Source of the DNA: an uncultured bacterium
GTDB taxonomy: Bacteria; Hydrogenedentota; Hydrogenedentia; Hydrogenedentales; JAEUWI01
Direction of reading: 5' to 3'
DNA: 19,094 nucleotides
NCBI GenBank assembly: GCA_963977445.1
Contig: CAXBPH010000126.1
Coordinates: forward strand, 1 to 19,094
Positions 306 through 10,943 of this stretch are shown one piece after another. Below the pieces are notes generated by a model, which did no database searches, was not told the DNA's origin, and saw only the letters and a program-made list of their open reading frames with translations. Made by a program: the position numbers and the translations under genes. How positions within the stretch are numbered: the first letter of the stretch is position 1; every line of letters begins with the position of its first letter.

Positions 306-315
306 CAATGGTTAT

Positions 316-363
316 AAATGGTGGGCGATACAAGAATCGAACTTGTGACCTCCACGATGTCAA
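316..363 (-). repeat. attR: 48-bp direct repeat, the duplicated 3' part of tRNA-Val
   Basis: AAATGGTGGGCGATACAAGAATCGAACTTGTGACCTCCACGATGTCAA is identical to 10864-10911. Confidence 0.97.
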
Positions 364-419
364 GCCGTATTTATAATAGAACAGTGCGACTATAACCGTA
401 TGGCATGCAACTACTTAGT

Positions 420-448
420 AAGTTAACACACTTTCTCTTCTATTGCAA
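420..448 (-). promoter_or_regulatory. Candidate sigma70 promoter pointing out of the island across attR
   Basis: On -: TTGCAA (448-443), 17 nt, TAACTT (425-420), with a TG extended -10. Confidence 0.4.
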
Positions 449-520
449 GTACCTTATTGCTTTCGGTTAATTTGTAGCGGTTTTCTTCGGTGTGGGGGTA
501 GTGTACCTGACGCTATACTT

Positions 521-1144
521 CTACCAGGCGCGTGATTCATCGCGCCTGATTTTCATTGCTTGACGTCGTCGCGTGTTACGGCCTGGGGAATCTATAGGAG
601 TATTCCCCATATGGTCTGAATGGGCCCACTTCATCGTGCTTGAACTTGTTGACGGCGGGCTGTCTAAAATTTCGACTTCGTCGGCCACTTCCCAAATACG
701 TTCGATAATCGTTTCGCGGTCTGTATTTGGATCAACCTGGTAGTAGGTCGCTAACTTCCGTAATTCTTGAATGGATATACGGTCTAAATCTACCCATTCA
801 TTTTCAGAAGGTAGATCGGGATTCTCTGACTCAGTCCCCGGGGCCTCTGTTGTTGGTAGAGGGCTGGGATTCCCTGACTCAACCTCTGGGACCTCTACTA
901 TCGGGAGAGTGCCGGGATTCCCTGACTCAACCTCTGGGGCCTCTGTTGTGGGTAGAGGGCTGGGATTCCCTGATTCAACCTCTGGGGTCTCTACGATCGA
1001 GAGGGGGCCAGAAGATTGACGCGCTTTGAACGCGTCCCTTCGACAACGATCATTGCAGTATCGCCGACGCCGGCCGGTTTCCGGCTGTTCGAGTGGATTC
1101 TCACAGAATTGACAGCGCCCTGGGGCTATTTTGGGTTCAATCAT
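521..1144 (-). CDS. 207-aa protein: N-terminal Cys4 Zn-finger-like motif, acidic Pro-rich 16-aa repeats, C-terminal HeH/Rho-N-like helical motif
   Basis: Start refined to ATG 1144 (AAGGGA upstream). Motifs: CQFC...GRRRRYCNDRCRR; (PEVESGNPSPLPTTEA)-like x4; LDRISIQELRKLATYYQVDPNTDRETIIERI. Confidence 0.7.
   Translation of the reverse strand: MIEPKIAPGRCQFCENPLEQPETGRRRRYCNDRCRRDAFKARQSSGPLSIVETPEVESGNPSPLPTTEAPEVESGNPGTLPIVEVPEVESGNPSPLPTTEAPGTESENPDLPSENEWVDLDRISIQELRKLATYYQVDPNTDRETIIERIWEVADEVEILDSPPSTSSSTMKWAHSDHMGNTPIDSPGRNTRRRQAMKIRRDESRAW
818..1009. repeat. Coding tandem repeat, 4 x 48 bp, in an ABAB (96-bp) higher-order pattern
   Basis: A GGGATTC(C/T)CTGA(C/T)TCA core starts at 818, 866, 914 and 962. 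Units alternate LPTTEA-type and L(P/S)IVE-type. Confidence 0.92.
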
Positions 1145-1223
1145 AGTTTCGTCCCTTATTTCTAGTTTCGTTTCGTCCCAAGTCGGTGCATGGGGGACTA
1201 ACAGTGCAAGAAGTAGTTGCAGT

Positions 1224-1265
1224 GCGTCGTCCGACCGAACCCTATGCCCCCCGCCCAGAGGACCC
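1224..1265 (-). other. Candidate lambda-like cos packaging site (cosQ plus cosN-like)
   Basis: - strand reads GGGTCCT (1265-1259), 23 nt ending GGGTTCG, then GTCGGACGACGC. Lambda reads GGGTCCT, 23 nt ending GGTTACG, then GGGCGGCGACCT. Confidence 0.5.
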
Positions 1266-1275
1266 ATCCATTTTT

Positions 1276-1341
1276 GGGCCTATTATTGGCCTGTTCATGC
1301 CCTGTTTCGTCCCTATTTTTGCCCTGTTTCAGGCCGATTCC
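1276..1341. repeat. Six degenerate tandem 11-bp units
   Basis: GGGCCTATTAT TGGCCTGTTCA TGCCCTGTTTC GTCCCTATTTT TGCCCTGTTTC AGGCCGATTCC. Confidence 0.8.
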
Positions 1342-1484
1342 AATCTGTGGGCCTGGAATCGCAATCGATAGGGTAGGCCAGATTCCGATAAATGTTACTA
1401 TGCGGAACGTTGCGTATCTCATAAGTATCCAAGCCACAATGCTTTGTGCGGTGTGTCGGGTAACTTAGGACAAAACGACCAACA

Positions 1485-1994
1485 TTAGACCGCTTGCGCT
1501 TCTCCATGAGCCTGCTGGTTCTTCGCCCTGTGGTGCAGGTACTTGAATTTGGAATCTATGGGTAGGTTGTCCTCAGCGAGTTCAATGACAGCCCGGTTCG
1601 TGGGCTTCACACCAAATGTATTATAGGCGTCCATTACTCGCCTGCAGCGAAAAGGTGTACTCTCGCCCAATAGGGAAGCCGACAATTCAGCGAGTTTTTC
1701 TTTCCTCTCCGCATCCGATGATGTGCTTTCACAAATAGCTTTCCAACCGTTTTCTAGGGCAACGCTGGCCCCTGGCTTCGATACGGTAGGCGGTACTATC
1801 GGCGAAATATTACGGGCGGGGCGGCTTCCTGAAAGGGAATCGTAGAGGTCGACCAGGTTGTCAATCTGATCCTGTGTAAGGCGCTCTCGATTAGTCCGGA
1901 AGTAGGTCATCACATCGGCACTATTTGAAAAGCGTGGAAAGCTCAATATCGGCTCGGCGTGTGGGTCTGGTTTATGCTCCTGAAAATGAAACAT
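1485..1994 (-). CDS. Hypothetical protein (169 aa) coupled to the rep gene
   Basis: ATG at 1994 overlaps the rep stop codon (TAATG), so the start is refined from 2066. No family recognised. Confidence 0.7.
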   Translation of the reverse strand: MFHFQEHKPDPHAEPILSFPRFSNSADVMTYFRTNRERLTQDQIDNLVDLYDSLSGSRPARNISPIVPPTVSKPGASVALENGWKAICESTSSDAERKEKLAELSASLLGESTPFRCRRVMDAYNTFGVKPTNRAVIELAEDNLPIDSKFKYLHHRAKNQQAHGEAQAV

Positions 1995-3028
1995 TACGAT
2001 ACAGCCCTCGATGACGTCGGCTTCGGTGGTAAGCTCTTTCCGTAAGGTGCAAGGAATTTTCCGCAAGCACTGGCGATGTATGCACCGGGTTTTTTGAGCC
2101 TCCCAAGATCCTTCGTCCGTCTTGTAGCGTCATCGCCACACTGTTCGGCATAGGTGATTGCTTCAGAAAGCCGATCAAGGCCTCCACAATCAACCATGAG
2201 GCCATAAACCGTTCTCCACCATGGTCGATAGCCTGGGGGGTCAGAGGATGCCTCTAGAAGCCGCTGAAATAGTTCTTTGTTGGCGTGTTCGCGTGGAATC
2301 GTGCCCGGTATGGCCAATACATCTGAAATTGAAACCGCCGATCCCGCCCCGCTATTCGAGTTCGGTGGAGTTGTGGCCACTCTCGGTGATCGGTTGCTTC
2401 TTCCCTGCCCCTGCGAACTCGGTTCGGTAGGGTGGGGTTCGGCATGGTTCGGTAGGGTAGGGTTCGGCTCGGCTCGGCTCGGCTCGGTAGGCGCGTTGGC
2501 GCGCGTCAACGCGCGTTCATTCTCTGGGTAGGGCGTTGACGCCCGAGTAGATAAACTTGAATGATTGTCAGTGGGAATGGCGGAAGGGGGAGGCGGATCG
2601 TTTGGGCATTGCTCTCGCTCAGCGACCATCCTTTTGAAGTCCCGTTCTATAGCGGGCCGGTCTTCTTTTCGTAATTTGGTCAATTTAGGGACGTTACCAC
2701 TTGCGAAGAAACGTCGCTCTTTCGCGAGTCGGTCATGTATGGAATCTTCGCAATGGTCTGACCAATCATGAACAACAATACGGTGTGAGCCGTGCTCATC
2801 AAGCCAACCGCGTTTTAACAGGACTTCGATCAGTTCATCAGGATCAGACTCATACCCGATTGATAGCGCTATTTCCTCGTTGGTAAACTTCCCCAGGTTG
2901 CCTTCAGGGGCGTTAAGGGCTGTGAAGTCCCATAAGTCTTGAAGTAGCCCCTTACCGGCGTATTTGGGAAGCTTGAGATCCCTCAGCATCAACAGAAATT
3001 TAGCTAATCCGTCTGTGCCTTTTTTCAT
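1994..3028 (-). CDS. Phage-type replication initiator / replisome-organiser-like protein (344 aa)
   Basis: N-terminal GLLQDLWDF..NAPEGNLGKFTNEEIA..IGY..DPDELIEVLL..GWLD....VVHDWSDH pattern seen in phage initiators, a central low-complexity linker encoded by DNA repeats (lambda O-like layout), and a small C-terminal domain. Confidence 0.7.
   Translation of the reverse strand: MKKGTDGLAKFLLMLRDLKLPKYAGKGLLQDLWDFTALNAPEGNLGKFTNEEIALSIGYESDPDELIEVLLKRGWLDEHGSHRIVVHDWSDHCEDSIHDRLAKERRFFASGNVPKLTKLRKEDRPAIERDFKRMVAEREQCPNDPPPPSAIPTDNHSSLSTRASTPYPENERALTRANAPTEPSRAEPNPTLPNHAEPHPTEPSSQGQGRSNRSPRVATTPPNSNSGAGSAVSISDVLAIPGTIPREHANKELFQRLLEASSDPPGYRPWWRTVYGLMVDCGGLDRLSEAITYAEQCGDDATRRTKDLGRLKKPGAYIASACGKFLAPYGKSLPPKPTSSRAVS
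2421..2544. repeat. Pentamer array and GC-rich palindromic motifs inside rep (candidate origin)
   Basis: 14 tandem GG(T/C)NN pentamers at 2421-2490, then GCGCGT at 10-bp spacing (2491, 2501, 2511) and GCGTTGRCGC or its complement at 2493, 2503 and 2533. Confidence 0.8.
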
Positions 3029-3057
3029 TTGAGTTTTTCCCTACCGCGTGCTACCAT
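3029..3057 (+). promoter_or_regulatory. Candidate antisense promoter overlapping the rep ribosome-binding region
   Basis: TTGAGT (3029-3034), 17 nt, TACCAT (3052-3057), with a TG extended -10. Confidence 0.55.
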
Positions 3058-3062
3058 GAGCA

Positions 3063-3120
3063 CACTACGTTTGAGTTTTGCCGCCCCAATTCTTCGAAGG
3101 CCTTGGGGTGGCGTTTTTTT
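3063..3120 (+). ncRNA. Candidate ~57-nt antisense RNA against the rep leader
   Basis: Lies between the promoter above and the hairpin GCCGCCCCAA / TTGGGGTGGC (3080-3089 / 3103-3112; the G-U pair works only on +) followed by T7 at 3114-3120. The 5' end is inferred. Confidence 0.5.
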
Positions 3121-4756
3121 AAAGTACTTCTACCGCATTCGCGCGCGCGCCGCCTGGTTGGGCTATAGCACCACCACCTGCCGTATTCTTCGCGATTTCC
3201 TTCAACAGCCGATGGATTTCTGGATCAGCGTTTGAAGACGTAGAAGAAGACGGCGCTTGTGAAGCATTGGCCGTTCCGCCCAAGCTGCTCCGATAGTTTG
3301 AATATTCGTTCTGAGTCATCAAGTGAGGCGGCATCTGGCGATTTCTTACCTCTTCAAGGGTTGTCCCAACATTGAAGGGGCCCGCCAAGATATCAGCAGG
3401 GCTAAACGACGCCCCCCGTTCAGCTCGGGCCATATCGGCGTCTCTCTTCTCAATCCATTTTTGCCGCATCTGGGCGCGAAACATTTCCCCATCCGTCTGA
3501 CTGGCAACAATATCCCGGCCTTCTTCGGCAAAACTTGGGCTAAGTACACCCAACACCTTCCCGCCAAAATCCCCCAGCGGACCAGCCTTGCCTCCAGTAG
3601 ATACAGCGACGTTCGCCGCCCCGAGATTCGCCCGTTTAATCATTTTCGCGTAGAATGATTCTGAAACCACATCATCGGCCAACATGGGCGCATTCTCGAT
3701 AGTGGACTGAATTGCCGTCATGTCACGTGCAAAAAAATGGGCAGGATCTGATAGTCGAGTACGAAGCTTTTCTAAGGCTGTATCGGTTTTCCCTGTAATC
3801 GACTCTAAGTGCTTCATGGATTGGGCAATATCGTCCACCGAATCGGCCATAATATTCGCAGACACAACCGATTCTTTACCGAAAACTTTGGCCATTTGCT
3901 TTCCATTGGTTTCAAAAAGCGTGTCCAACTGCCGAAGCTTATCGATATACGTTCCAGTTAAGGTGATGCCCTTCTCCTGGGCTTCCTGCATGATCAGGAA
4001 GACGTTTCGCATGCCCGTGAAAACCTTCTCAACGGAACCTGCCTTCTTTGTCGCCCCGATGATTGATCCTAAGACTTCATCCATATTTAAGCCCGTCACC
4101 TGGCCGGCAGAAAAGAGCTCCGGGGCGCGTGTGGCCAGGTCTTCAAAGCGGAGTGAGGCTTGCTCTTGGGTATACATTAGTTTGTTTTGTAACTGATTGA
4201 CGTTCGTCACCTCTTTTCCATAAATCTGATAGGCCTTCGTCATCAGGTTTTGCGCGGTCACCAGGTCGCCACCTGTCACCTCAGCGAGCTCGAGAGTCTC
4301 TTTCTTTAAGTCTCCGATTTCCGCAGCGGTCAAATTGCCCGTGTTCGATTTCAAGTCAAATAGGAAACCTGAAATATCCTTCACCCCCGCGCCAAGAGAA
4401 ATAGCCGTGGAGGTGATTTCACGGCGTAAGCCTTGTAGGTTCCCAGCGTTATCTCCAAGGGAAGAAAGGGGCGTCAGAGCCTTTTCAAGCTCCACGCGCT
4501 TCGAAACGAATTGATCTGCCCCTTGGTTGAGACTAGAGAAAACGGTTCCCAAACCTTGAAAACCCGCGTAGCCCGCGATGCTCAAACCTATCTTTTTTCC
4601 CATTTTTTGGAATGATGTACCCAACATGTCTGACTGACGGGAGAGTGCCTTCATATCACTGAGTTGGGCTTTATAGATTTCCTTCACAATGCCACGAGCA
4701 GCCGTAGTATTCCCTGTCGTGAATTCCATTTTTACTTCGGTATCGCCTTTACCCAT
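3119..4756 (-). CDS. Phage tail tape-measure protein (545 aa)
   Basis: Start refined to ATG 4756 (GGAAGG upstream; TAATG overlap with the previous stop). Ala/Gly-rich helical protein with a TP901-type core: LELAEVTGGDLVTAQNLMTKAYQIYG...LRFEDLA...AGQVTGLNMDEVLGSI...FTGMRNVFL. Confidence 0.85.
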   Translation of the reverse strand: MGKGDTEVKMEFTTGNTTAARGIVKEIYKAQLSDMKALSRQSDMLGTSFQKMGKKIGLSIAGYAGFQGLGTVFSSLNQGADQFVSKRVELEKALTPLSSLGDNAGNLQGLRREITSTAISLGAGVKDISGFLFDLKSNTGNLTAAEIGDLKKETLELAEVTGGDLVTAQNLMTKAYQIYGKEVTNVNQLQNKLMYTQEQASLRFEDLATRAPELFSAGQVTGLNMDEVLGSIIGATKKAGSVEKVFTGMRNVFLIMQEAQEKGITLTGTYIDKLRQLDTLFETNGKQMAKVFGKESVVSANIMADSVDDIAQSMKHLESITGKTDTALEKLRTRLSDPAHFFARDMTAIQSTIENAPMLADDVVSESFYAKMIKRANLGAANVAVSTGGKAGPLGDFGGKVLGVLSPSFAEEGRDIVASQTDGEMFRAQMRQKWIEKRDADMARAERGASFSPADILAGPFNVGTTLEEVRNRQMPPHLMTQNEYSNYRSSLGGTANASQAPSSSTSSNADPEIHRLLKEIAKNTAGGGAIAQPGGARANAVEVL

Positions 4757-4977
4757 TATTCGGTTTCCTTCCAAACTTGCGCGATGAATTTACCGAGTCC
4801 AAAACGATGACGGCCGTTCCTGCAGCTCTTGCAAAATTGGTTTACCTGGTCGATTTTCGAGCTCAAAAGGATCAAGATTCTTTGTATGCTTAGAAGCCAA
4901 CTCAGCGGAATCATGAAAGTAACCCGGTCACCAATAGGGAGGCCCCTCGAGGCGTTCCAGCGTTGAATGAGGCCCAT
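4756..4977 (-). CDS. Small hypothetical protein (73 aa) directly upstream of the tape measure
   Basis: ATG 4977 lies 1 nt after the DUF1580-like stop, and its TAA overlaps the tape-measure ATG, so it fills the gap exactly. Confidence 0.55.
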   Translation of the reverse strand: MGLIQRWNASRGLPIGDRVTFMIPLSWLLSIQRILILLSSKIDQVNQFCKSCRNGRHRFGLGKFIAQVWKETE

Positions 4978-4978
4978 A

Positions 4979-5311
4979 TCACATACCCAAATCTTGAAGT
5001 TTACGGTGGGCGGTTTCGGCGGCTTCAGTTCGTTGTCGGTCGGTCCGTGGCACAGGTAATTGGATGGGATTTCTGGAAGAACTTCGCAGCCTGAAATAGG
5101 CGGCGTCGGCGGCTTTGAGTTCGTCAAAAAAATCGTTTACATCTTTGTCAGCAACAAGAATTCGCCGCCCGCAACGAATATGTTTCAAGTGAATTCGGTC
5201 ACCTGATTTGACTTGGAGGCCTTCCCGACACCAACGCCATAAGGATTGTGGCGATGTTTTGACAGGGATATCGCGGGCAACTTGGGCTAACGTTCTATAT
5301 TCTTCGATCAT
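4979..5311 (-). CDS. DUF1580-like winged-HTH protein (excisionase/AlpA-like)
   Basis: TLAQVARDIP..TSPQSLWRWCREGL......IHLKHIRCGRRILV..KDVNDFF and a C-terminal RQRTEAAETAHRKLQDLG helix; AGGAG RBS. Confidence 0.75.
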   Translation of the reverse strand: MIEEYRTLAQVARDIPVKTSPQSLWRWCREGLQVKSGDRIHLKHIRCGRRILVADKDVNDFFDELKAADAAYFRLRSSSRNPIQLPVPRTDRQRTEAAETAHRKLQDLGM

Positions 5312-5369
5312 AAGTAATACTCCTAGTGGTTAAATAATTCGCTTCGATTGAATCATCACATTGTTTTCC

Positions 5370-5407
5370 AAAATGGCCCCCGCCGCGCCCAATGATGCGC
5401 GGCGGGG
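5370..5407 (-). terminator. GC-rich hairpin after the capsid gene (terminator or mRNA stabiliser)
   Basis: Perfect 11-bp stem CCCCGCCGCGC / GCGCGGCGGGG (5378-5388 / 5397-5407); only a short U-run on -. Confidence 0.55.
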
Positions 5408-5435
5408 TAGGGGCACCAACTTATAGGCTTAAAGC

Positions 5436-6542
5436 CTACTGCCCGAAGCTTCCCCACACCGCGCGGGGATCCAGGCGGGTACCGCCAAAAACGTGTTTAA
5501 CCTTCCAAGTGAGCACATCGGTCTGAATGCGTTTGATATCGCGGGCATCTGGGGCGCTTACCTGGGGAGCGTCGTAGCCCACCAAGGTCCCAAACTCACC
5601 GGCTGGAATATTGGCGGGGTCGGTGAACAGTGACCAGCACGTCGAACCAATGGTGCCAGATGTCGAAAGGACAGGGATCCAAGGATTAACCAGAAGTTTG
5701 ATTCCGAGATCCGACAGAACATTCTTTGTCCCGTGCGATTCTGCGACACCTGGGCCACTTCCAGACCCATCAACCACATGGTTAAGACTGATCGAGTTCA
5801 GCAATTGCATTGCCTTGATCATGAGCCCAGGTCCCACCATCAGGAATTTCGGCATGGAAATGATCGGGTCACCTTCGGTGTCGGTGTAACCAAGCATTTG
5901 TCCTACTGCTGTGGCCAAGTTATCTATCGTCAGAGGTAGGCTACTGGGCCCACTTGGTTGCGCACTATAAAAGGCATCAATTGGGCCACCAGCATCGAAA
6001 AACAAAGAGGTCATGAAGGCCTCCTCACTCCGCAGCGCGCCTCTGACCATACGTTCTGGAAGCGTATTAAAAACCCCTACCGGGTCATTGGTGATGGATT
6101 CCTCGGTGGCCTCAAAAAGCGCCCCGTGCTTACCCACAAAATAACGTTCGGTCTGTTCTTGCGACACGGTTATCTGTGGATATTCGCCATTCTCTTTGAC
6201 GAGCGGCAAGGTCGATTCAGCGCCTTCGAAGCGAGTCGCTTCGACGGAATTATAGTTCGGGATATTTTTGCGGGTGCGCACCACCGACTTCATCACTGAA
6301 GACGAATGGCGATAGAGGGTCTGCATTTGGCGCGCTGCGACATCGGCGATTAATACAGAGGCACTGCCTGTCGTAGTGGCGAATTGCCGAATTCTATCGG
6401 CTCGGCGCGCGGGGTCTCCGCAATCGCCCCATAAGACGTTGCTTGTCGCGGTCAGTTCGGCTTCAGAATGACATCGGCTTCGGCGGGAATCTTCCAGCGC
6501 CCAACCTTGGGAAAGATCAATTATAGTGGGTTCGTTTCTCAA
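5436..6542 (-). CDS. Major capsid protein, Mu gpT-like (HK97 fold), 368 aa
   Basis: VKENGEYP; KHGALFEATEESITND.VGVF..LP..M.RGA.RSEE; PKFLMVGPGL..KA.QLLNS; WSLFTDP; GTLVGYDAPQV; DVLTWKVKHVFGG..LDPR. Confidence 0.88.
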   Translation of the reverse strand: MRNEPTIIDLSQGWALEDSRRSRCHSEAELTATSNVLWGDCGDPARRADRIRQFATTTGSASVLIADVAARQMQTLYRHSSSVMKSVVRTRKNIPNYNSVEATRFEGAESTLPLVKENGEYPQITVSQEQTERYFVGKHGALFEATEESITNDPVGVFNTLPERMVRGALRSEEAFMTSLFFDAGGPIDAFYSAQPSGPSSLPLTIDNLATAVGQMLGYTDTEGDPIISMPKFLMVGPGLMIKAMQLLNSISLNHVVDGSGSGPGVAESHGTKNVLSDLGIKLLVNPWIPVLSTSGTIGSTCWSLFTDPANIPAGEFGTLVGYDAPQVSAPDARDIKRIQTDVLTWKVKHVFGGTRLDPRAVWGSFGQ

Positions 6543-6553
6543 GTAGAGATCTC

Positions 6554-6982
6554 CTAGAGGGTCAAAAGTTTGATGGGTATGTTGGCGGCGGTGGCAGAGC
6601 CCGACAATGCCGCCAGGGCAATTCCATATGGTGTATGGCCAGTGGTCGCATCGAGGGAGATAACACCGGTTGAGTCGTCAATATAGAGGGTTGCACCCAT
6701 GACGACGTTCGCGGTCGAATCATCATCACTTGCCACGACGGGTAGGGTGAAAATTCCGCAAGTTTGGATTACACAATCCGCGCCCACACCGCTTGGTGGA
6801 GTAACACAAATCCCTGTGAAACCACCAGCGACGACGACGGGATCGTAGATTTCAACCGGCGAATTGGGCGCGGTCAACGCGGATTCAGGGACCGTGATTA
6901 ATGACCCGCCCTGGCTCGGGGCTGGACTGTGTTCATAACCAGCCGCAAGGCCGGTCGGGTACATGGTTTTGGGGTATCCCAT
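6554..6982 (-). CDS. DUF2190-like capsid decoration/cement protein
   Basis: PVVVAG..TGICVT...GADCVIQTCGIFTLP...VMGATLYIDD...TT...PYGIALAA.....IPIKL; lies between the protease and capsid genes. ATG 6982 chosen for AGGAG spacing; TTG 6991 is possible. Confidence 0.78.
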   Translation of the reverse strand: MGYPKTMYPTGLAAGYEHSPAPSQGGSLITVPESALTAPNSPVEIYDPVVVAGGFTGICVTPPSGVGADCVIQTCGIFTLPVVASDDDSTANVVMGATLYIDDSTGVISLDATTGHTPYGIALAALSGSATAANIPIKLLTL

Positions 6983-6987
6983 TTTTT

Positions 6988-8001
6988 TCAATCTCCTGTG
7001 TGGGCGGCTTCTTCCGCCATTTTTTGGGCCTGTTCTTCGCTGTAGCCCTGGCTCAAGAATCGACGAAGAAATGATTCTTTCAAAGTCTCGCCGCCCTGGC
7101 TAAACTCGCCGCCCATGGGTTCCACGTTCTTAATATCAATCGCCGCCGATGTGGCCTCCAGCAATTCCATCTGGTGAAGCTTGTTGATACGTTCAAATTC
7201 TTTGTCGGATCGCTCGATCACTTGTTCAAGAAAATTCACCACCTGGCAACCACTAGCGATGGCCTCCAAAGCAACTTCTTGCAAATGAGCTTTACCACGA
7301 GAAAACTTGACAATATAAGCAACGCGATCCTTTTCGGTGGCGGGATCGGCGGGTTCAAGTTCGGATGTATTGGCCATCCCAAGGAGTTTTGCTTGGTGGC
7401 TCAGGACGCCCTGTGCGTGGGTGACGAATCCAGGATCTGTCAGCGCCTTTTTAAGGTCGACCATCGTTCTCGAATCGAGATTGACCCCTTTGGGGAGTTC
7501 ACCAAAAAGACCATCAGTAGCGGCTGGATCGTCAACAATATCGACCGCGTGCAAAGCATCAACACGACATAGGCGATATGAGACTTTATCTTCATCTTCA
7601 ACTCTTTCGGATTCCACGGTAGAGATGGAGACTGAAGCGCCCAGTAGACCCGGGTCAGACTTAGCGACGGACAAGATATGGTCTTTCGCGGTTTTCGGTG
7701 CCGCATCGGACCAGTGCAAATCGGCTACTACGACATCACCCGAACGGCGAAAGTCCTTAAATCGCCCCAGTGCGGTTCCAAACCCAGGCGAACAAATGTT
7801 CGGGTGATTGGCGCGGCATTTCACACCCTGGGGTGAAGCGTTGCCCAGGTCAATGACCTGGTCAAGGGTGGTTTCATCGATCATCAGATCGTGACCCCGC
7901 GCCTTGCCCATCGCGATAACGTGGACACCCTTCAAAACATCTATGTCACCGGTGATGACGGTGCCTTTAAGGGCCGGTGTTTCCAGGGTAAGTTCAGCCA
8001 T
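6988..8001 (-). CDS. Prohead maturation protease with a C-terminal scaffold-like region (337 aa)
   Basis: GVHVIAMGKARGHDLMIDETTL; GVKCRANHP (candidate catalytic His); LGRFKDFRR.GDVVVADLH; LGASVS (candidate catalytic Ser); LHAVDIVDDPAA; acidic helical C-terminal half; position before the decoration and capsid genes. Confidence 0.78.
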   Translation of the reverse strand: MAELTLETPALKGTVITGDIDVLKGVHVIAMGKARGHDLMIDETTLDQVIDLGNASPQGVKCRANHPNICSPGFGTALGRFKDFRRSGDVVVADLHWSDAAPKTAKDHILSVAKSDPGLLGASVSISTVESERVEDEDKVSYRLCRVDALHAVDIVDDPAATDGLFGELPKGVNLDSRTMVDLKKALTDPGFVTHAQGVLSHQAKLLGMANTSELEPADPATEKDRVAYIVKFSRGKAHLQEVALEAIASGCQVVNFLEQVIERSDKEFERINKLHQMELLEATSAAIDIKNVEPMGGEFSQGGETLKESFLRRFLSQGYSEEQAQKMAEEAAHTGD

Positions 8002-8698
8002 CAGTCAGGGCCTTAAGAGCCTGCGCGGCGATTTTGCGTTCTTCTTTCGACAGGTACAGATCGCCAGATAATTCATTGAGGCGTTCAAGATCATTGTTTT
8101 TGATGGCTTGATTCAGGTAGCGCCGATGCGAAGCGATAGTTTGTGTGATGGCATCGGGGCGGCTGGTAAAGGGAGGGAGGGGGCAGAGACGGTATCCAAT
8201 AGCATCCCAAAAGTCAATCCAACCCTTCGGGCCACAAGTTGAGCCTAGGGCAAACAGAGCTTGATCCAAAAGGTCCAGTTCTTGAGAATTCACAGCTTGA
8301 AGATTGTCCATAAATTCAGTGGATGTTTCTTTGATTACCCAAGTGTCAACCCAATCAATAATTGCCGCATAAACCTCGTGGCGACGAATATTAGTTAGGA
8401 TATGGGGCTGAATGGGTTTGGTCCCTGCTTCAATCCCAATTAATGTGGCCCTGTGACACCCAAGTATTACCGCGAAACCATCTTGGGTGTATCCCATTGC
8501 TTGACGCAATAGTTTGACCCGCAATGCTACGTGCGCTAATGAGTGTTTGAGTTTGTCGTGGATGGAGAACTTAACCCCATCATCCCCCTCTATCGGGGAA
8601 GTTTTCTTGGGTCGTGGAACGTTCATAGAGTCCAGTTTGCAGAACCCCTTGTACCACAATTCGGGATTAGGTGGGCAGAGTAGATATTCTATTCTCAA
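7994..8698 (-). CDS. XRE-family HTH regulator with an unknown C-terminal domain (234 aa)
   Basis: RVKLLRQAMGYTQDGFAVILGCHRATLIGIEAGTKPI; overlaps the protease start by 8 nt. The start codon is uncertain. Confidence 0.75.
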   Translation of the reverse strand: MRIEYLLCPPNPELWYKGFCKLDSMNVPRPKKTSPIEGDDGVKFSIHDKLKHSLAHVALRVKLLRQAMGYTQDGFAVILGCHRATLIGIEAGTKPIQPHILTNIRRHEVYAAIIDWVDTWVIKETSTEFMDNLQAVNSQELDLLDQALFALGSTCGPKGWIDFWDAIGYRLCPLPPFTSRPDAITQTIASHRRYLNQAIKNNDLERLNELSGDLYLSKEERKIAAQALKALTDG

Positions 8699-8784
8699 GT
8701 TCTATTCTCCAGTTGTGAGTTTTGGAATGTTTCTAAATGTCGTTTAGAAGACACATCCAGGTGGCGTTTCTGAGTTATGACTGG

Positions 8785-8813
8785 AGTGTATCACGAATGT
8801 AGATAACGTACAA
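8785..8813 (-). promoter_or_regulatory. Candidate sigma70 promoter of the xre-head operon
   Basis: On -: TTGTAC (8813-8808), 17 nt, TACACT (8790-8785), with a TG extended -10. Confidence 0.6.
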
Positions 8814-8875
8814 GAGCAGGAAACATCACATTTAGTGCAAGAAATATCATATTTCAGGGCTATTGGGTGTTTTCG

Positions 8876-8917
8876 AAACAAAAAAAGGACAGATCCAATC
8901 TATAAGAGGATCTGTCC
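8876..8917 (-). terminator. Intrinsic terminator insulating the xre-head operon from upstream transcription
   Basis: Perfect 10-bp stem GGACAGATCC / GGATCTGTCC (8887-8896 / 8908-8917) with an A-rich run at 8876-8886 (U-tail on -). Confidence 0.7.
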
Positions 8918-9137
8918 CGTAGCGGTGCGTGGGAACTATGGCAATCGTTTCCCTGAAGTATCAGGAAGTGTGGTGTGTGTTCTATAGTGTCCGATTGAAC
9001 ATTCGAGTATTGAGTTAGAAATTCCATAATCATCCCTAATCTATTAGGAATGCAACTGGCAATCAGGTATGTAGTCCCCTTGGTTTTCGACTATAATAGG
9101 GGATACGGCTCTCTGCATCACGTTGCATTCGAGTCCA

Positions 9138-9180
9138 GGTCCCCCACGGTGTTGGCGCACTGTGGGGGACCGTCTTTTTT
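9138..9180 (+). terminator. + strand intrinsic terminator, the end of a candidate small RNA
   Basis: 14-bp stem GGTCCCCCACGGTG / CACTGTGGGGGACC (G-U pair on +) followed by GTCTTTTTT; no U-tail on -. Confidence 0.65.
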
Positions 9181-9562
9181 AGGCGGTCTGGGTGCCACCT
9201 ACCCCGAAGAACCTGGCAAATACTTGGGCCAGGGCATCTTCAGAGGGAGCTGGTGGGAGTGATTCTTCTAATATCGATGACGATAACCGTTCGTCCATCA
9301 GTTCCATTGGGGATTTGCCGGCCAAGTCTTCACCTTTCGTGTATATCTTGCTCCAGAAGTGGTGAACTGTAGAGCCGTTGGGCAGTATGTCGAGAGATAG
9401 GATCACGTCATCAAGATCGCAATGACCAGAAAATAGGGCCCCTGAAGGGTAATTGATGGTGTATTGGAAACTTCTATTGTGTCCCATGAAGATATTCCTT
9501 CTGTTCGGGTTTCCGACTCCGCTAGGAGAAGTCGATACAAAATCCGGTGCCCCAGTGGCCAC
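9179..9562 (-). CDS. Hypothetical protein (up to 127 aa) downstream of the integrase
   Basis: Fills the space after int on the same strand. No family recognised; the start may be the internal Met (MGHNRSF). Confidence 0.55.
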   Translation of the reverse strand: MATGAPDFVSTSPSGVGNPNRRNIFMGHNRSFQYTINYPSGALFSGHCDLDDVILSLDILPNGSTVHHFWSKIYTKGEDLAGKSPMELMDERLSSSILEESLPPAPSEDALAQVFARFFGVGGTQTA

Positions 9563-9590
9563 GGTCTATGGTTTTACTCACGTATCCTAA

Positions 9591-10751
9591 TTATCCGAGC
9601 TCTTGGGCTATTTGTATGGCTAACTCGGTATTCTTTTCGGCGTAGAGCTCGGTGGTGTTGATTCGGCTATGCCCCAGCGCAACGGAGGCTTCGATACCGG
9701 AAATCTTGCGCACTTCGGTGGCGTGGTTGTGACGTAGGCGATGGGGGTGCCAACGGGGCACCTTGGCGGCGTCACATGCGCGGCGGACTGCTCGAGCGTA
9801 TGAATCCTTGTCGTAATGGTCGCGGACTACGCGGGCGGTTTGGCGGGTATCGGCCTTTTGATTTGGGCGGCGATGGGTTCGGGCTTGGGACTTTTGTTCT
9901 GTGATGGCGTCCCGGGGACTAAACAGGTAACTGGAAATGGGTCTATCATTCAGAAAGGGCCGGATCACCTCTTGGGCTTTCGGCCCCATATAGAGGGTCC
10001 GTGTCTTTCCGTGATGAGCCGTCTTGTGTCTGCCCAGGTGGACTATCCATATCGCTTGCTCCGTGTTGATATCAATAGGACGTAAAAACACTACTTCAGA
10101 GCTTCGGGCACCCGTCAATAGTTGGAGTTGAATCAATGCCCATATTTGGCGGGATACATGATCCTTAATAGCGTGTACGTGGTCCAGGGGCACAGGTAGC
10201 ACCCTTTTGGGCTCTTTCGCTTGCGACCGCCCCGCTCGAAGCCCTTCGACCGTGGACAATGCCTGGTATACAGCGGGGCCGATCAACTCCTCAGAGACCG
10301 CCCAACGGAAGATCTTTTTCACTTCCCCTGTATAGTCGTTGATAGTCTTCCTGGCTAACCCTCGATTGATCCATGTCTCTCGAAGTGCTTTCAGGGATAG
10401 GGGGGAGAAGTCAGCCGCTTCGATATCGCCGTAAATTTTGCGCACATCGGCAATTACGAGCTTTACCCGGTCCAGAGATCGGGCCGCGTTGCCCTCTGGA
10501 GTTCTGTACCACTGTTCGGCGTGGTTCCAATAGCGGGCAAGAACTTCCACCACCAAAACCCCATCATCCTGGCGAAGGGGTAGGGCCCGACCAGAAGCAA
10601 GCCATTCGGACAAAGTCCGGTCATACTTCATTTGGGCAGAAGATGTGCCATACTTGCCCAAATAGACACGTTTTCCGGAAAGATTTACATAGGCTTGCCC
10701 GCTGGCCTTGTGTAATCGGATGGTGGGTATGTTTTTTTTGCTAAAAAGCAT
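9591..10751 (-). CDS. int: Tyrosine recombinase/integrase (386 aa)
   Basis: Catalytic set R (TGARSSE), K (HKT), H-x-x-R (HRLRH), H (LGH), Y (TELYA); N-terminal arm-binding-type region HKASGQAYVNLSGKRVYLGKYG; adjacent to the att/tRNA. Confidence 0.96.
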   Translation of the reverse strand: MLFSKKNIPTIRLHKASGQAYVNLSGKRVYLGKYGTSSAQMKYDRTLSEWLASGRALPLRQDDGVLVVEVLARYWNHAEQWYRTPEGNAARSLDRVKLVIADVRKIYGDIEAADFSPLSLKALRETWINRGLARKTINDYTGEVKKIFRWAVSEELIGPAVYQALSTVEGLRAGRSQAKEPKRVLPVPLDHVHAIKDHVSRQIWALIQLQLLTGARSSEVVFLRPIDINTEQAIWIVHLGRHKTAHHGKTRTLYMGPKAQEVIRPFLNDRPISSYLFSPRDAITEQKSQARTHRRPNQKADTRQTARVVRDHYDKDSYARAVRRACDAAKVPRWHPHRLRHNHATEVRKISGIEASVALGHSRINTTELYAEKNTELAIQIAQELG

Positions 10752-10753
10752 AA

Positions 10754-10820
10754 AGGCGGTGCGACTCCAAGGGTGATCCGGGTATGTACCCGGAATTGTC
10801 CTTTTTGTGTCGCACCGCCT
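10754..10820. promoter_or_regulatory. Long nested inverted repeat abutting the int start codon
   Basis: AGGCGGTGCGAC / GTCGCACCGCCT (10754-10765 / 10809-10820) enclosing TCCGGGTA / TACCCGGA (10777-10784 / 10787-10794). Confidence 0.7.
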
Positions 10821-10863
10821 ATTAGCGGGAAACCAATCTAAGTGATTGATTCGACTTGGTTTA

Positions 10864-10911
10864 AAATGGTGGGCGATACAAGAATCGAACTTGTGACCTC
10901 CACGATGTCAA
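10864..10911 (-). repeat. attL: 48-bp direct repeat covering the tRNA-Val 3' part
   Basis: Identical to 316-363. Confidence 0.97.
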
Positions 10912-10943
10912 CGTGGCGCTCTAACCAACTGAGCTAACCGCCC
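10867..10943 (-). tRNA. tRNA-Val (GAC)
   Basis: GGGCGGTTAGCTCAGTTGGTTAGAGCGCCACGTTGACATCGTGGAGGTCACAAGTTCGATTCTTGTATCGCCCACCA: full cloverleaf, anticodon GAC, encoded CCA. Confidence 0.98.

Follow-up and report, generated by a model that had tools for sequence, protein, structure and literature searches.

The PLEs of Vibrio cholerae remodel the capsid of ICP1 and are not known to make their own. In the published description, the tail genes listed as their own are those for the tape measure protein (TMP), TAC and the baseplate hub BhuB, with no capsid protein gene named, and the PLE TMP has been reported to enter virions, to replace the helper TMP in chimeric tails, to set tail length and to be required for transduction (Mathur, Boyd et al., Nature 2026, PMC12987554). 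Putative tmp genes have also been reported in some cf-PICIs (PMC12987554, Extended Data Fig. 10 legend). These are integrative elements with integrase, regulators and replication genes, which make their own capsid protein and protease and take tails from a helper. Their 11 core components are described as including TerL, a head-tail adaptor and a connector, and portal, TerS and HNH genes are also given for them (PMC10085698, PMC10690885); the PICI and cfPICI models of SatelliteFinder forbid tail profiles (PMC10085698). P4 and the classical PICIs/SaPIs, islands of ~10-15 kb integrated at a tRNA gene or att site, encode an integrase, regulators and replication functions, and need the virion machine of a helper. 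They are described as redirecting the helper capsid protein (Sid/Psu or Cpm-type), often with TerS, and as encoding no major capsid protein (MCP), cement protein or TMP (PMC10690885, PMC10085698). Another example is that of the Extracellular Prophage-Inducing Particles (EPIPs) of Mycolicibacterium (bioRxiv, December 2025, PMC12822802; record OR387110, Alyssa1), satellites of ~11 kb with small heads and altered tails, which carry their own scaffold, MCP and TMP genes and lack portal, large terminase (TerL) and tail tube. In OR387110 the MCP gene (7458-8282) is immediately followed by the TMP gene (8355-10310). Finally, 'twilight-zone' mini HK97-fold genomes of <11.6 kb have been described from metagenomes. 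They encode an integrase, a Rep-type protein and regulators together with a scaffold and an HK97-fold MCP, lack terminase, portal and tail structure genes, and occasionally have a single tail gene, e.g., TMP; a satellite lifestyle is one hypothesis offered for them (Aguilar et al., Nat Commun 2026, PMC13669383). Their dominant group, from the human gut, is reported to average 8.75 kb and to have an MCP with encapsulin-type Pfam domains and initiators of the RepA type (PMC13669383).

The element described here lies in a window of 19,094 nucleotides (the whole stretch of DNA analysed) and is a discrete 10.5-kb insertion at the 3' end of a tRNA-Val gene. It measures 10,548 bp and is bounded by 55-nt direct repeats (309-363 and 10857-10911; 96% identical, spacing 10,548). 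The first-pass annotation had called it a complete att-bounded element of co-oriented genes, and this holds: the same core recurs at other loci, in two further Hydrogenedentota genomes (L001 and L002), the minus strand is the coding strand of all element genes, and junctions overlap or abut at 7994-8001, 6988-6991 and 4756-4774. The element combines integrase, replication initiator and regulator genes of its own with head-shell genes and one tail-class gene, as follows.

309..363, no strand: attL-side direct repeat, 55 nt, a displaced partial copy of the tRNA-Val 3' end
521..1267, minus strand: zinc-ribbon protein, 248 aa as listed; its repeats are acidic and its C-terminus has a conserved helical motif
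1485..2066, minus strand: ORF of 193 aa, no function assigned, weakly homologous to an ORF in the corresponding place of L002
1994..3028, minus strand: replication initiator/replisome organiser-like protein, 344 aa (phrog_9474, 1.2e-13; phrog_13246)
3119..4774, minus strand: tape-measure-domain protein, 551 aa (PF10145, 1.3e-9)
4756..4977, minus strand: conserved small ORF of 73 aa that starts at an ATG within a 123-aa frame
4979..5311, minus strand: small HTH protein, 110 aa (HTH_17, E 0.021; phrog_66, excisionase/regulator, 1e-3)
5378..5407, minus strand: perfect 11-bp GC hairpin, an inverted repeat of 100% complementarity directly 3' of the capsid gene stop
5436..6542, minus strand: HK97-type major capsid protein, 368 aa (PF25209, 1.1e-31)
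6554..6991, minus strand: head cement/decoration protein, 145 aa (PF09956, 3.9e-10; phrog_122, head decoration)
6988..8001, minus strand: predicted prohead protease of 337 aa whose C-terminal half is helical and scaffold-like (AF2/Foldseek)
7994..8698, minus strand: XRE-type HTH protein, 234 aa (HTH_3, 2.3e-4), its stop overlapping the protease start
9179..9562, minus strand: ORF of 127 aa, no function assigned, absent from L001 and L002
9591..10751, minus strand: tyrosine integrase, 386 aa (PF00589, 1e-14; phrog_1, 2.9e-36)
10857..10911, no strand: attR-side direct repeat inside tRNA-Val, covering the 3' 45 nt of the tRNA
10867..10943, minus strand: tRNA-Val(gac), the integration target (ARAGORN; Rfam RF00005, 70.3 bits)

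The head-shell kit is complete, comprising a protease with a scaffold-like tail, an HK97-type capsid protein and a cement protein. The 337-aa protein has no Pfam match, and its AF2 model (pLDDT 85.4) is matched by Foldseek to the T4 gp21 prohead protease (5jbl, E 2.2e-4, prob 1.0) and also to herpesvirus assemblins, which are proteases. Its protease domain spans about residues 20-160; across 60 sequences H66 and S123 do not vary and H37 hardly does, and among the 3046 relatives recovered by a profile search 11 of the 22 sampled were fused to a PF25209 capsid. The predicted role as a prohead protease with a scaffold-like tail is thus confirmed by the modelled fold. The capsid protein matches Phage_capsid_4 and Mu-like gpT in Pfam and the capsid half of NF045541 (2.6e-29), and has homologues at 61-69% identity; the hairpin after its gene is a possible attenuator or terminator. 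Encapsulins are HK97-fold shells that have no portal, and clades mixing viruses and encapsulins have been reported (PMC13669383), in line with an encapsulin-like nanocompartment operon on an integrative element, whose shell would hold cargo and not DNA. This is barely credible here, however, as the Pfam scan of the capsid protein gave the two phage matches and no encapsulin domain, prohead protease, cement protein and tape-measure-domain gene are virion features, and a cargo enzyme is absent.

The tail-class gene encodes a 551-aa protein that scores 38.6 bits against PF10145 (gathering cutoff 33.2) and matches the TMP PHROGs 991, 28 and 167 (down to 3.6e-7), as well as TIGR01760 (8e-5, under the cutoff of that model). 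Its orthologues in L001 and L002 are 38-44% identical, and PF10145 is present in all 19 relatives, of 500-667 aa; tblastn against 50,697 phage records gave no match. Directly upstream of the TMP-like gene lies a small ORF (62-73 aa) in three of three elements; the 73-aa copy in the window abuts the HTH stop, overlaps the TMP start, and has no family (PHROGs, PADLOC) or PDB match. No tail assembly chaperone is recognisable adjoining the TMP-like gene. Judging from its domain, the 551-aa protein may act as a tail ruler, and the PLE TMP, as described, provides an experimentally supported model for it (PMC12987554).

With regard to the remaining genes, the assignments of the first-pass annotation (int, xre, protease/scaffold, decoration, Mu gpT-like capsid, tape measure and rep) are borne out by domain, PHROGs or fold matches. 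The integrase is 58% identical to that of L002, and the replication initiator from 44% (tblastn) to 50% (global). The XRE-type HTH protein keeps its position in L001 and L002 at merely 24-26% identity. Foldseek, which had been proposed for the ORFs, recovered the protease fold described above, whereas for this protein (AF2 pLDDT 60) it returned XRE HTH matches exclusively, none at E<=1e-3; an Atlas search led to HTH_3 clusters. It is likely a regulator, with a TerS-like role being possible. For the small HTH protein, 34% identical to its L002 match, HTH_17 and phrog_66 point weakly to the AlpA/Xis-like protein first proposed, at best, whereas the 'DUF1580' label was not reproduced. The 127-aa ORF has no match in Pfam, PHROGs, NCBIfam or PADLOC and no tblastn match in L001 or L002; the 193-aa ORF aligns with L002 14414-15025 at 22% identity and has no family match in the same four collections. 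The zinc-ribbon protein is conserved in L001 and L002 with C-x2-C...C-x3-C, the conserved part starting at about residue 42, and matches phrog_2308 (unknown function, 3.2e-5); tandem repeats of 48 nt occupy 817-1008 of its gene.

The first-pass annotation had recognised no large terminase, portal, connector, tail tube, baseplate or lysis gene, and the scan of 54 ORFs for packaging, tail and lysis families agrees: none of these matched in 13 of 13 main ORFs (Pfam, PHROGs, NCBIfam), and 0 of 41 further ORFs (at least 50 aa, both strands) had any PHROGs match. The 30 ORFs of L001 and L002 gave no terminase, portal, connector or tube match, with the same outcome in Pfam. The largest ORF lacking assignment has at most 248 aa. 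Since the ORFs of 127, 193 and 248 aa and the C-terminal part of the XRE-type HTH protein are without family assignment, 'no TerS' is here absence of evidence. The scans reveal no helper either, and in its gene set the element is like the portal-less mini genomes, which have genes for integrase, Rep, MCP and scaffold. In the survey of these genomes tail genes are reported in 23 of 536, a single one in 20 of those 23, and autonomous portal-less packaging has been raised for them as an alternative (PMC13669383). An autonomous mini HK97-fold virus that packages without terminase and portal, with the TMP-like protein as delivery device, is very unlikely, however. The Reps match replisome-organiser, DnaD/O-like and DnaC-like families and not rolling-circle HUH initiators, so that Rep-driven packaging of ssDNA, the proposed route, falls away; replication modules of the theta/replisome-organiser type fit concatemer packaging by terminase. 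Moreover, capsid, protease and cement are ordinary tailed-phage head genes with distant relatives that adjoin portal and TerL, the capsid protein shows no encapsulin domain in Pfam, and the element has no lysis genes.

Synteny at about 10 kb, which the first-pass annotation had proposed to look for, is seen in L002, a colinear element of 10,105 bp at tRNA-Pro with perfect 54-nt repeats 10,105 bp apart. L001 has the same core (XRE-protease-cement-MCP-small ORF-TMP), but in place of the modules of the window its integrase is of the P4 type and its replication genes are DnaD/O-like and DnaC-like. This recurrence in two other genomes means that the arrangement is not due to chance. Across the three loci compared at the DNA level (window, L001 and L002), protein identity is 24-67% and reading frames are intact. 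For five genes (protease, cement, MCP, TMP and rep), pS is 0.62-0.90 versus a pN of 0.27-0.45, with synonymous sites saturated, and dN/dS is 0.13-0.31, hence not near 1, in the 5 of 17 pairs with finite dS. From these values, the reduced core is under purifying selection in all three elements. Capsid relatives at 30-34% identity (L003, L004, L008 and L009) lie inside ordinary full-prophage modules; in L003 the order is TerL-portal-MuF-...-cement-MCP, then connectors, tube and a 939-aa TMP. In such prophages TMP has 939-1060 aa, and the 551-aa protein aligns with the N-terminal PF10145 part only of one of them, as might be expected of a decaying prophage in which some head genes and a shortened tape-measure gene happened to survive. 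This origin is extremely unlikely: the close homologues L001 and L002 are equally reduced and share the core despite their divergence, non-synonymous divergence is well under the saturated synonymous one, precise att repeats flank two elements at different tRNAs, integrase and replication modules are swapped as units, and all 19 TMP-like relatives stay within their narrow length range. The deletion or decay reading is largely refuted by the conserved core, purifying selection, att repeats and module exchange. The place of the distant capsid relatives in ordinary prophage modules indicates that the reduced set is derived and stable, and the 10.1-10.5 kb of both att-bounded copies suggests a packaging size constraint.

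The element fits neither P4/PICIs nor cf-PICIs, as first proposed: portal, TerL, TerS, adaptors and HNH, or any other packaging or connector gene, were not found (Pfam, PHROGs, NCBIfam), Sid/Psu or Cpm-type families gave no match (Pfam, PHROGs), and a tail-class gene is present. It likewise falls outside the PLE family definition and, set against PLEs by description, has no recognisable TAC or hub. Unlike the twilight-zone genomes, which are described as DTR contigs (PMC13669383), it is integrated with att sites, and its core includes a PF25209/Mu gpT-like MCP without encapsulin domain, protease, cement and a conserved TMP. No counterpart is recognisable in the element for the small terminase, head-to-tail adaptor and stopper of the EPIPs. 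Their integrase is of the serine type, whereas the element has a tyrosine recombinase, prohead protease, cement protein and replication initiator and resides in another host phylum; tblastn of 13 window proteins gave no match to EPIPs below E 0.019. The observation behind the proposed new satellite type is confirmed. Its novelty holds in part, as EPIPs are alike yet show no detectable homology, and the conclusion 'therefore new type' does not follow: EPIPs, the TMP of PLEs, tmp genes of cf-PICIs and portal-less mini HK97 genomes precede it, and the main ingredients of the proposed lifestyle are already described.

The best explanation, in which we place moderate confidence, is that of a phage satellite which integrates, depends on a helper and forms its own capsids, a mini element whose family has so far been seen in the uncultured phylum Hydrogenedentota. 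Satellite factors acting against helper assembly have been documented, e.g., Rta against the ICP1 TMP (PMC12987554), as has PICI-encoded tail assembly interference (PMC11364771), and a packaging specificity gene was not recognised (Pfam, PHROGs, NCBIfam). It is thus conceivable, albeit unlikely, that a mobilisable island poisons the infecting phage with decoy capsid protein, protease and tape measure, transfer in its own capsid being secondary or absent. However, a co-conserved set of protease-scaffold, cement and capsid with catalytic residues kept exceeds the needs of a decoy, PADLOC (16 proteins) gave no defence match except one HTH, and the constant size speaks for packaging. The helper phage, the particle, the excised form and the packaging site of such a satellite are so far predicted ones. 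Once a helper siphovirus infects or is induced, the element would excise, replicate as double-stranded DNA and express its co-oriented morphogenetic operon. Its capsid protein and a helper portal, which would need to fit that protein and the scaffold, would build a small shell sized for ~10 kb, filled by the helper terminase through a shared cos/pac site or an unrecognised specificity factor of the element; both helper dependence and capsid size are what we infer for it. Its tape measure would combine with helper tail parts, and the chimeric tail would have a length specific to the element (551 aa would correspond to roughly 60-85 nm) and maybe distinct entry properties. The family is small and conserved, and so far known from Hydrogenedentota.

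The element lies between two direct repeats, the right one of which overlaps a tRNA-Val gene, as is typical of elements that have integrated at the 3' end of a tRNA. The flanks are chromosomal, with a YceI-like protein, a TAT-signal GFO/IDH/MocA oxidoreductase, an OmpA-family protein, and an Nramp–ApbE fusion encoded on the right side. The fusion gene (17021–19093, minus strand, open at the window end) joins an Nramp-like transporter domain (residues 12–298) and an ApbE flavin-transferase domain (387–671) in one reading frame. Within the element, all credible genes are co-directional on the minus strand, several of their junctions overlap or abut, and the assigned genes occupy about 89% of the length, by arithmetic on the coordinates.

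Features of the element and its attachment site (window coordinates)
309–363 and 10857–10911: direct repeats of 55 nt, 96% identical, spacing 10,548 bp
521–1267, minus: zinc-ribbon protein (C-x2-C...C-x3-C, acidic repeats, conserved helical motif; PHROGs of unknown function only)
1485–2066, minus: unknown ORF
1994–3028, minus: replication initiator (phrog_9474, 1.2e-13)
3119–4774, minus: tape-measure-domain protein, 551 aa (PF10145, 38.6 bits against a cutoff of 33.2; tape measure PHROGs to 3.6e-7)
4756–4977, minus: small conserved ORF that immediately precedes the tape-measure-like gene (73 aa when started at an ATG inside the listed frame of 123 aa)
4979–5311, minus: weak HTH protein, 110 aa
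5436–6542, minus: capsid protein (PF25209, 1.1e-31)
6554–6991, minus: cement protein (PF09956, 3.9e-10)
6988–8001, minus: protease/scaffold-like protein, 337 aa (no Pfam match; assigned by fold)
7994–8698, minus: XRE-type HTH protein, 234 aa (HTH only)
9179–9562, minus: unconserved ORF, 127 aa
9591–10751, minus: tyrosine integrase (PF00589, 1e-14; phrog_1, 2.9e-36)
10867–10943: tRNA-Val(gac), its 3' 45 nt covered by the right repeat

The element is integrative and self-replicating. A strong GC-rich hairpin of 14–15 bp followed by a T run (plus strand, window 9138–9171) is found past the end of the 127-aa ORF, within the 480-nt gap before the XRE-like gene. Promoter and terminator scans gave 6 hits versus 9.4 and 16 versus 12.9 expected from shuffling, respectively, and were rated at or below expectation; PADLOC detected no defence system in it.

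The capsid protein matches the Pfam families Phage_capsid_4 and Mu-like_gpT, together with a chance-level match to PolC_DP2_N. Its lack of any encapsulin-type Pfam domain speaks against a nanocompartment (encapsulin), an explanation that is hardly credible and was rejected. For the 337-aa protein, a profile built from three orthologues retrieved 3046 relatives among 1.84 billion representatives, matching mainly over the first 170–205 residues, and 11 of 22 sampled relatives were long fusion proteins with a PF25209 capsid domain as their C-terminal half. In the AlphaFold2 model (60 sequences, mean pLDDT 85.4), the N-terminal domain was matched by Foldseek to the T4 gp21 prohead protease (5jbl; E 2.2e-4, probability 1.0, TM 0.50 on the target), with herpesvirus assemblins next. 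H66 and S123 are invariant and H37 is nearly invariant in the 60 sequences, and we infer that they are the conserved His/Ser catalytic residues of an assemblin-like fold; residues 177–335 are helical. Because of this fold match, the invariant H66 and S123, and the helical segment, the protein is read as a prohead protease whose tail is scaffold-like; it is not a portal. By tblastn against phage records, the protease domain gave weak partial matches only, in 24 Bacteroidales phage records, and PDB sequence searches with the protease/scaffold, tape-measure-like, and small-ORF profiles returned nothing below E 0.3.

Packaging, connector, and tail genes have been sought in the whole element. None of the 13 main ORFs matched a large terminase (TerL), portal, or adaptor/connector-type family in Pfam, PHROGs, or NCBIfam, and a PHROG search with the 41 other ORFs that reach 50 aa, both strands included, had no match. 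Since the longest unassigned ORF has 248 aa, the element has no room for a hidden portal or large terminase of the conventional kind. Terminase, portal, connector, and tail tube families were likewise without a match among the 30 ORFs of two related elements from Hydrogenedentota MAGs (L001 and L002). What the element carries is a complete set of head-shell genes and a single tail-class gene; no gene for packaging, head completion, tail structure, or lysis can be recognised in it. The first-pass annotation had proposed just this combination, its own capsid and tape measure and no packaging motor, portal, or tail parts, and had guessed at a protease/scaffold; the ORF searches bear out the former, and the gp21 match and helical C-terminal part the latter.

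Directly upstream of the protease gene, and overlapping its start, lies the XRE-like gene, which was for this reason examined as a hidden small terminase (TerS). No support for such a role has so far emerged: the profile search gave only the three orthologues, the Atlas search gave HTH_3 clusters, and the AlphaFold2 model (pLDDT 60, poor outside the HTH) had only XRE HTH matches in Foldseek, none at E ≤ 1e-3. The gene has kept its position and is 24–26% identical to its L001 and L002 counterparts, versus 41–67% for the neighbouring structural genes, a divergence that would suit a protein recognising specific DNA sequences or sensing a helper. Two other genes of obscure role are conserved in all three elements. 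One is the small ORF upstream of the tape-measure-like gene (62–73 aa), for which no family or PDB/structure match was found. The other is the zinc-ribbon gene, for which an Atlas search with the L002 copy was uninformative (best score 0.75). In the window, this gene contains three to four tandem 48-nt repeats (817–1008) encoding acidic, proline-rich units (PEVESGNP...); the homologue in L001 contains repeats of its own, 12 nt long (L001 7649–7732), and the L002 copy has none, so the repeat tract is variable. At or upstream of the zinc-ribbon ORF start, GTTTCGTCCC occurs in three exact copies (window 1146–1155, 1170–1179, and 1304–1313), and longer imperfect repeats (1135–1161/1293–1319 and 1290–1333) occupy the same region. 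These repeats are iteron-like and could represent a candidate origin or packaging site.

The element belongs to a family. In a set of 5.8 billion proteins, the capsid protein has six close relatives only, at 61–69% identity. The closest of them (P0002, a metagenomic homologue, 69%) is encoded on a contig of 10,681 nt, near the 10,548 bp of the element, and this contig may be an excised or packaged copy. Two further close homologues, P0004 and P0029, are each assigned to a contig of 8,967 nt, possibly one and the same. A scan of species-representative genomes with the capsid protein gave nine loci, two of them close and both in Hydrogenedentota MAGs. In L002, perfect 54-nt direct repeats lie 10,105 bp apart, the left copy in a tRNA-Pro(tgg) gene, with host genes on both sides, and the gene order is identical to that of the window from the integrase through the zinc-ribbon protein. 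L001 has in common with the window the zinc-ribbon protein, XRE, protease, cement, capsid, small ORF, and a tape-measure-domain protein of 574 aa; it differs in its P4-type integrase and in a replication module made of a RusA-like protein, a DnaD/O-like initiator, and a DnaC-like loader. It is bracketed by host genes roughly 12 kb apart, and a search for its att site found none, the longest words common to both ends being 11 nt. Other satellite families likewise keep their morphogenetic core constant while the integrase and replication modules are swapped.

A prophage remnant was considered as another explanation. The more distant capsid relatives (30–34% identity) lie in ordinary prophage modules, as judged by Pfam at six of the seven distant loci (L006 being left out). 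In L003 (Alkalicoccus), the order is TerL, portal, MuF, a 449-aa protein, cement, capsid, about seven connector/tube/chaperone ORFs, a 939-aa tape measure, and Dit. Parts of such a module are present in L004, L008, and L009, and L005 and L007 had too few Pfam matches for a judgement. In L005 (Dactylosporangium fulvum), an 867-aa ORF upstream of the capsid gene (5025–7628) combines a 2'-5' RNA ligase-like and an ADP-ribosyltransferase exoenzyme domain (PF03496, 2.7e-18) and may be a head-associated toxin-domain protein, and in L007 (Nannocystaceae) a tRNA-Met gene (8712–8784) is found about 120 bp downstream of the capsid match end. Against a remnant, the reduced core is conserved in three elements whose orthologues are 24–67% identical, and pS is saturated (0.62–0.90) versus a lower pN (0.27–0.45) for protease, cement, capsid, tape measure, and Rep. 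The first-pass annotation had named as fatal to its claim close homologues in full prophages only and a dN/dS near 1; instead, L001 and L002 are equally reduced and dN/dS is 0.13–0.31 in the 5 of 17 pairs with finite dS. A stable, reduced lineage is therefore favoured, and the remnant has been rejected as very unlikely.

Tape measure proteins (TMPs) lie in the tail lumen, set tail length, and are partnered by a frameshifted chaperone gene encoded upstream. The PF10145 domain of the 551-aa protein is retained in the orthologues of L001 (39.3 bits) and L002 (42.5 bits), which also match several TMP PHROGs; the TIGR01760 score of the window protein is below the cutoff of that family. This family has 19 members, all of 500–667 aa and all with PF10145. 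By tblastn, the protein had no match in phage records, and no tail assembly chaperone (TAC) or baseplate hub is recognisable in the element by Pfam or PHROGs. The available text of PMC12987554 quotes 95 residues for 10–15 nm; by extrapolation, a tail ruled by the 551-aa protein would measure some 60–85 nm.

As regards replication, the phrog_9474 initiator is not a primase, and the modules of the window, L001, and L002 are replisome-organiser or O/P-like and not rolling-circle, as would suit a terminase acting on double-stranded concatemers. Both terminal parts of the initiator, N and C, are conserved between the window and L002, and its low-complexity middle contains tandem repeats (a 25-nt unit twice at window 2421–2470; a CCGATA-type run at L002 14086–14130).

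P4-like satellites are defined by the Sid, Psu, and Delta capsid-redirection genes and the P4 alpha primase, and no ORF of the element has a Pfam or PHROG match of these types. PICIs and SaPIs have five core components, among them a capsid-morphogenesis gene and TerS, and their detection model, in the part of PMC10085698 that sets it out, forbids tail and cf-PICI components; the element has no TerS or cpm-type match, and carries its own capsid protein and a TMP of the forbidden class. The cf-PICIs have, in the sections available, 11 core components including TerL, head-tail adaptor, and connector, with tail profiles again forbidden (PMC10085698, PMC10690885). With them the element has in common an integrase, a regulator, and a replication module (PF00589, HTH proteins, phrog_9474), as well as a capsid protein and a prohead protease (the latter by fold); it differs in lacking any match to the packaging and connector genes among its 54 ORFs and in breaking the no-tail-gene rule of that model (PMC10085698, same section) with a PF10145 domain above the gathering score. 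VEIMEs are described in the accessible part of PMC9618062 as encoding no capsid genes.

The reference elements of the PLEs have a serine recombinase according to the same part of PMC9618062. In the available text of PMC12987554 (Nature 2026), every PLE has genes for a TMP and a chaperone, the TMP is present in virions, PLE tails are about 10 nm shorter, and tmp deletion lowers transduction by 96–99.9%; the legend of its Extended Data Fig. 10 adds putative tmp genes in PLE-like elements and a sampling of cf-PICIs. Compared by description only, the element has a tyrosine recombinase and a TMP-domain gene without a TAC or hub match. A literature search for satellite tape measures in chimeric tails returned the PLE work and a meeting report only, and a separate one for capsid-related satellites of Hydrogenedentota found no paper. 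The EPIPs are 11-kb Mycolicibacterium satellites with TerS, adaptor, stopper, serine integrase, scaffold, capsid protein, and TMP, and with no portal or TerL (PMC12822802, bioRxiv December 2025). The likeness includes scaffold, capsid protein, TMP, and a size of about 11 kb, and the capsid and TMP genes are adjacent in the EPIP Alyssa1 and nearly so in the element; the element differs in having no recognisable TerS, adaptor, or stopper and a tyrosine instead of a serine integrase. By tblastn of the 13 element proteins against Alyssa1 (OR387110), nothing was significant (best E 0.019).

Finally, a survey has described 4730 putatively complete viral genomes below 11.6 kb, 536 of them with HK97-fold capsid proteins (PMC13669383, Nat Commun 2026; here and below from the available portion of that article). 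Its dominant group (76 genomes, mean 8.75 kb) has integrase, RepA, capsid protein, and scaffold and no terminase, portal, or tail genes, with one ORF annotated as tape measure; tail genes occur in 23 of the 536 genomes, just one in 20 of the 23, and the authors propose a satellite lifestyle or non-canonical packaging (PMC13669383). The element resembles these Twilight-zone genomes (Aguilar et al.) in size (10,548 bp), HK97-fold capsid protein, and absence of a portal, terminase, or tail-structure gene; its TMP is an exception to their gene set, as in a minority of them (PMC13669383), and the encapsulin-type Pfam domains of the dominant group's capsid protein are missing from its own. A self-sufficient, portal-less HK97-fold mini virus of an uncultured phylum, its small shell filled without terminase and the TMP-like protein serving as a transient delivery tube, is very improbable; if true, it would be the first virus of the tailed-phage lineage to dispense with the portal–terminase machine.

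The family is real and conserved, and is assigned to no described family by homology or defining features, PLEs and Twilight-zone genomes being compared from their descriptions. The first-pass annotation was right to place it outside P4, PICIs, and cf-PICIs, given the absent defining genes and the forbidden-class TMP; its claim of a new type is supported only in part, since the EPIP, PLE, and Twilight-zone reports fill much of the gap it had claimed. A small satellite with its own shell and tail ruler and no portal or motor is already described in the EPIPs. What sets the element apart is the joint presence of protease, cement protein, capsid, and tape measure with neither TerS nor connectors recognisable, its integration between defined att sites, and its host phylum.

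On balance, the reading somewhat favoured is a helper-dependent capsid-forming satellite. The element would excise and replicate when a helper siphovirus is active; its capsid protein, protease-scaffold, and cement protein would form small shells on a helper portal, which the helper terminase would fill via a common cos or pac site or an unrecognised specificity factor; and the filled heads would be joined to tails of helper parts around the element's own tape measure. An interference-first island is improbable. The value of the finding is limited by an uncultured host and by an element known so far from its genes. If the satellite model is true, this would be the leanest capsid-forming design so far, supplying only shell and tail ruler and leaving portal, motor, connectors, tube, tip, and lysis to the helper, and it would mean that helper portals can nucleate a foreign capsid protein. 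Control of tail length by a satellite, so far shown in Vibrio PLEs only, would have a second, independent origin in a distant phylum, based on unrelated genes, at least some of the many portal-less mini HK97 genomes of metagenomes would gain a concrete integrated, att-bounded form, and the element would provide the first mobile-element biology for Hydrogenedentota.
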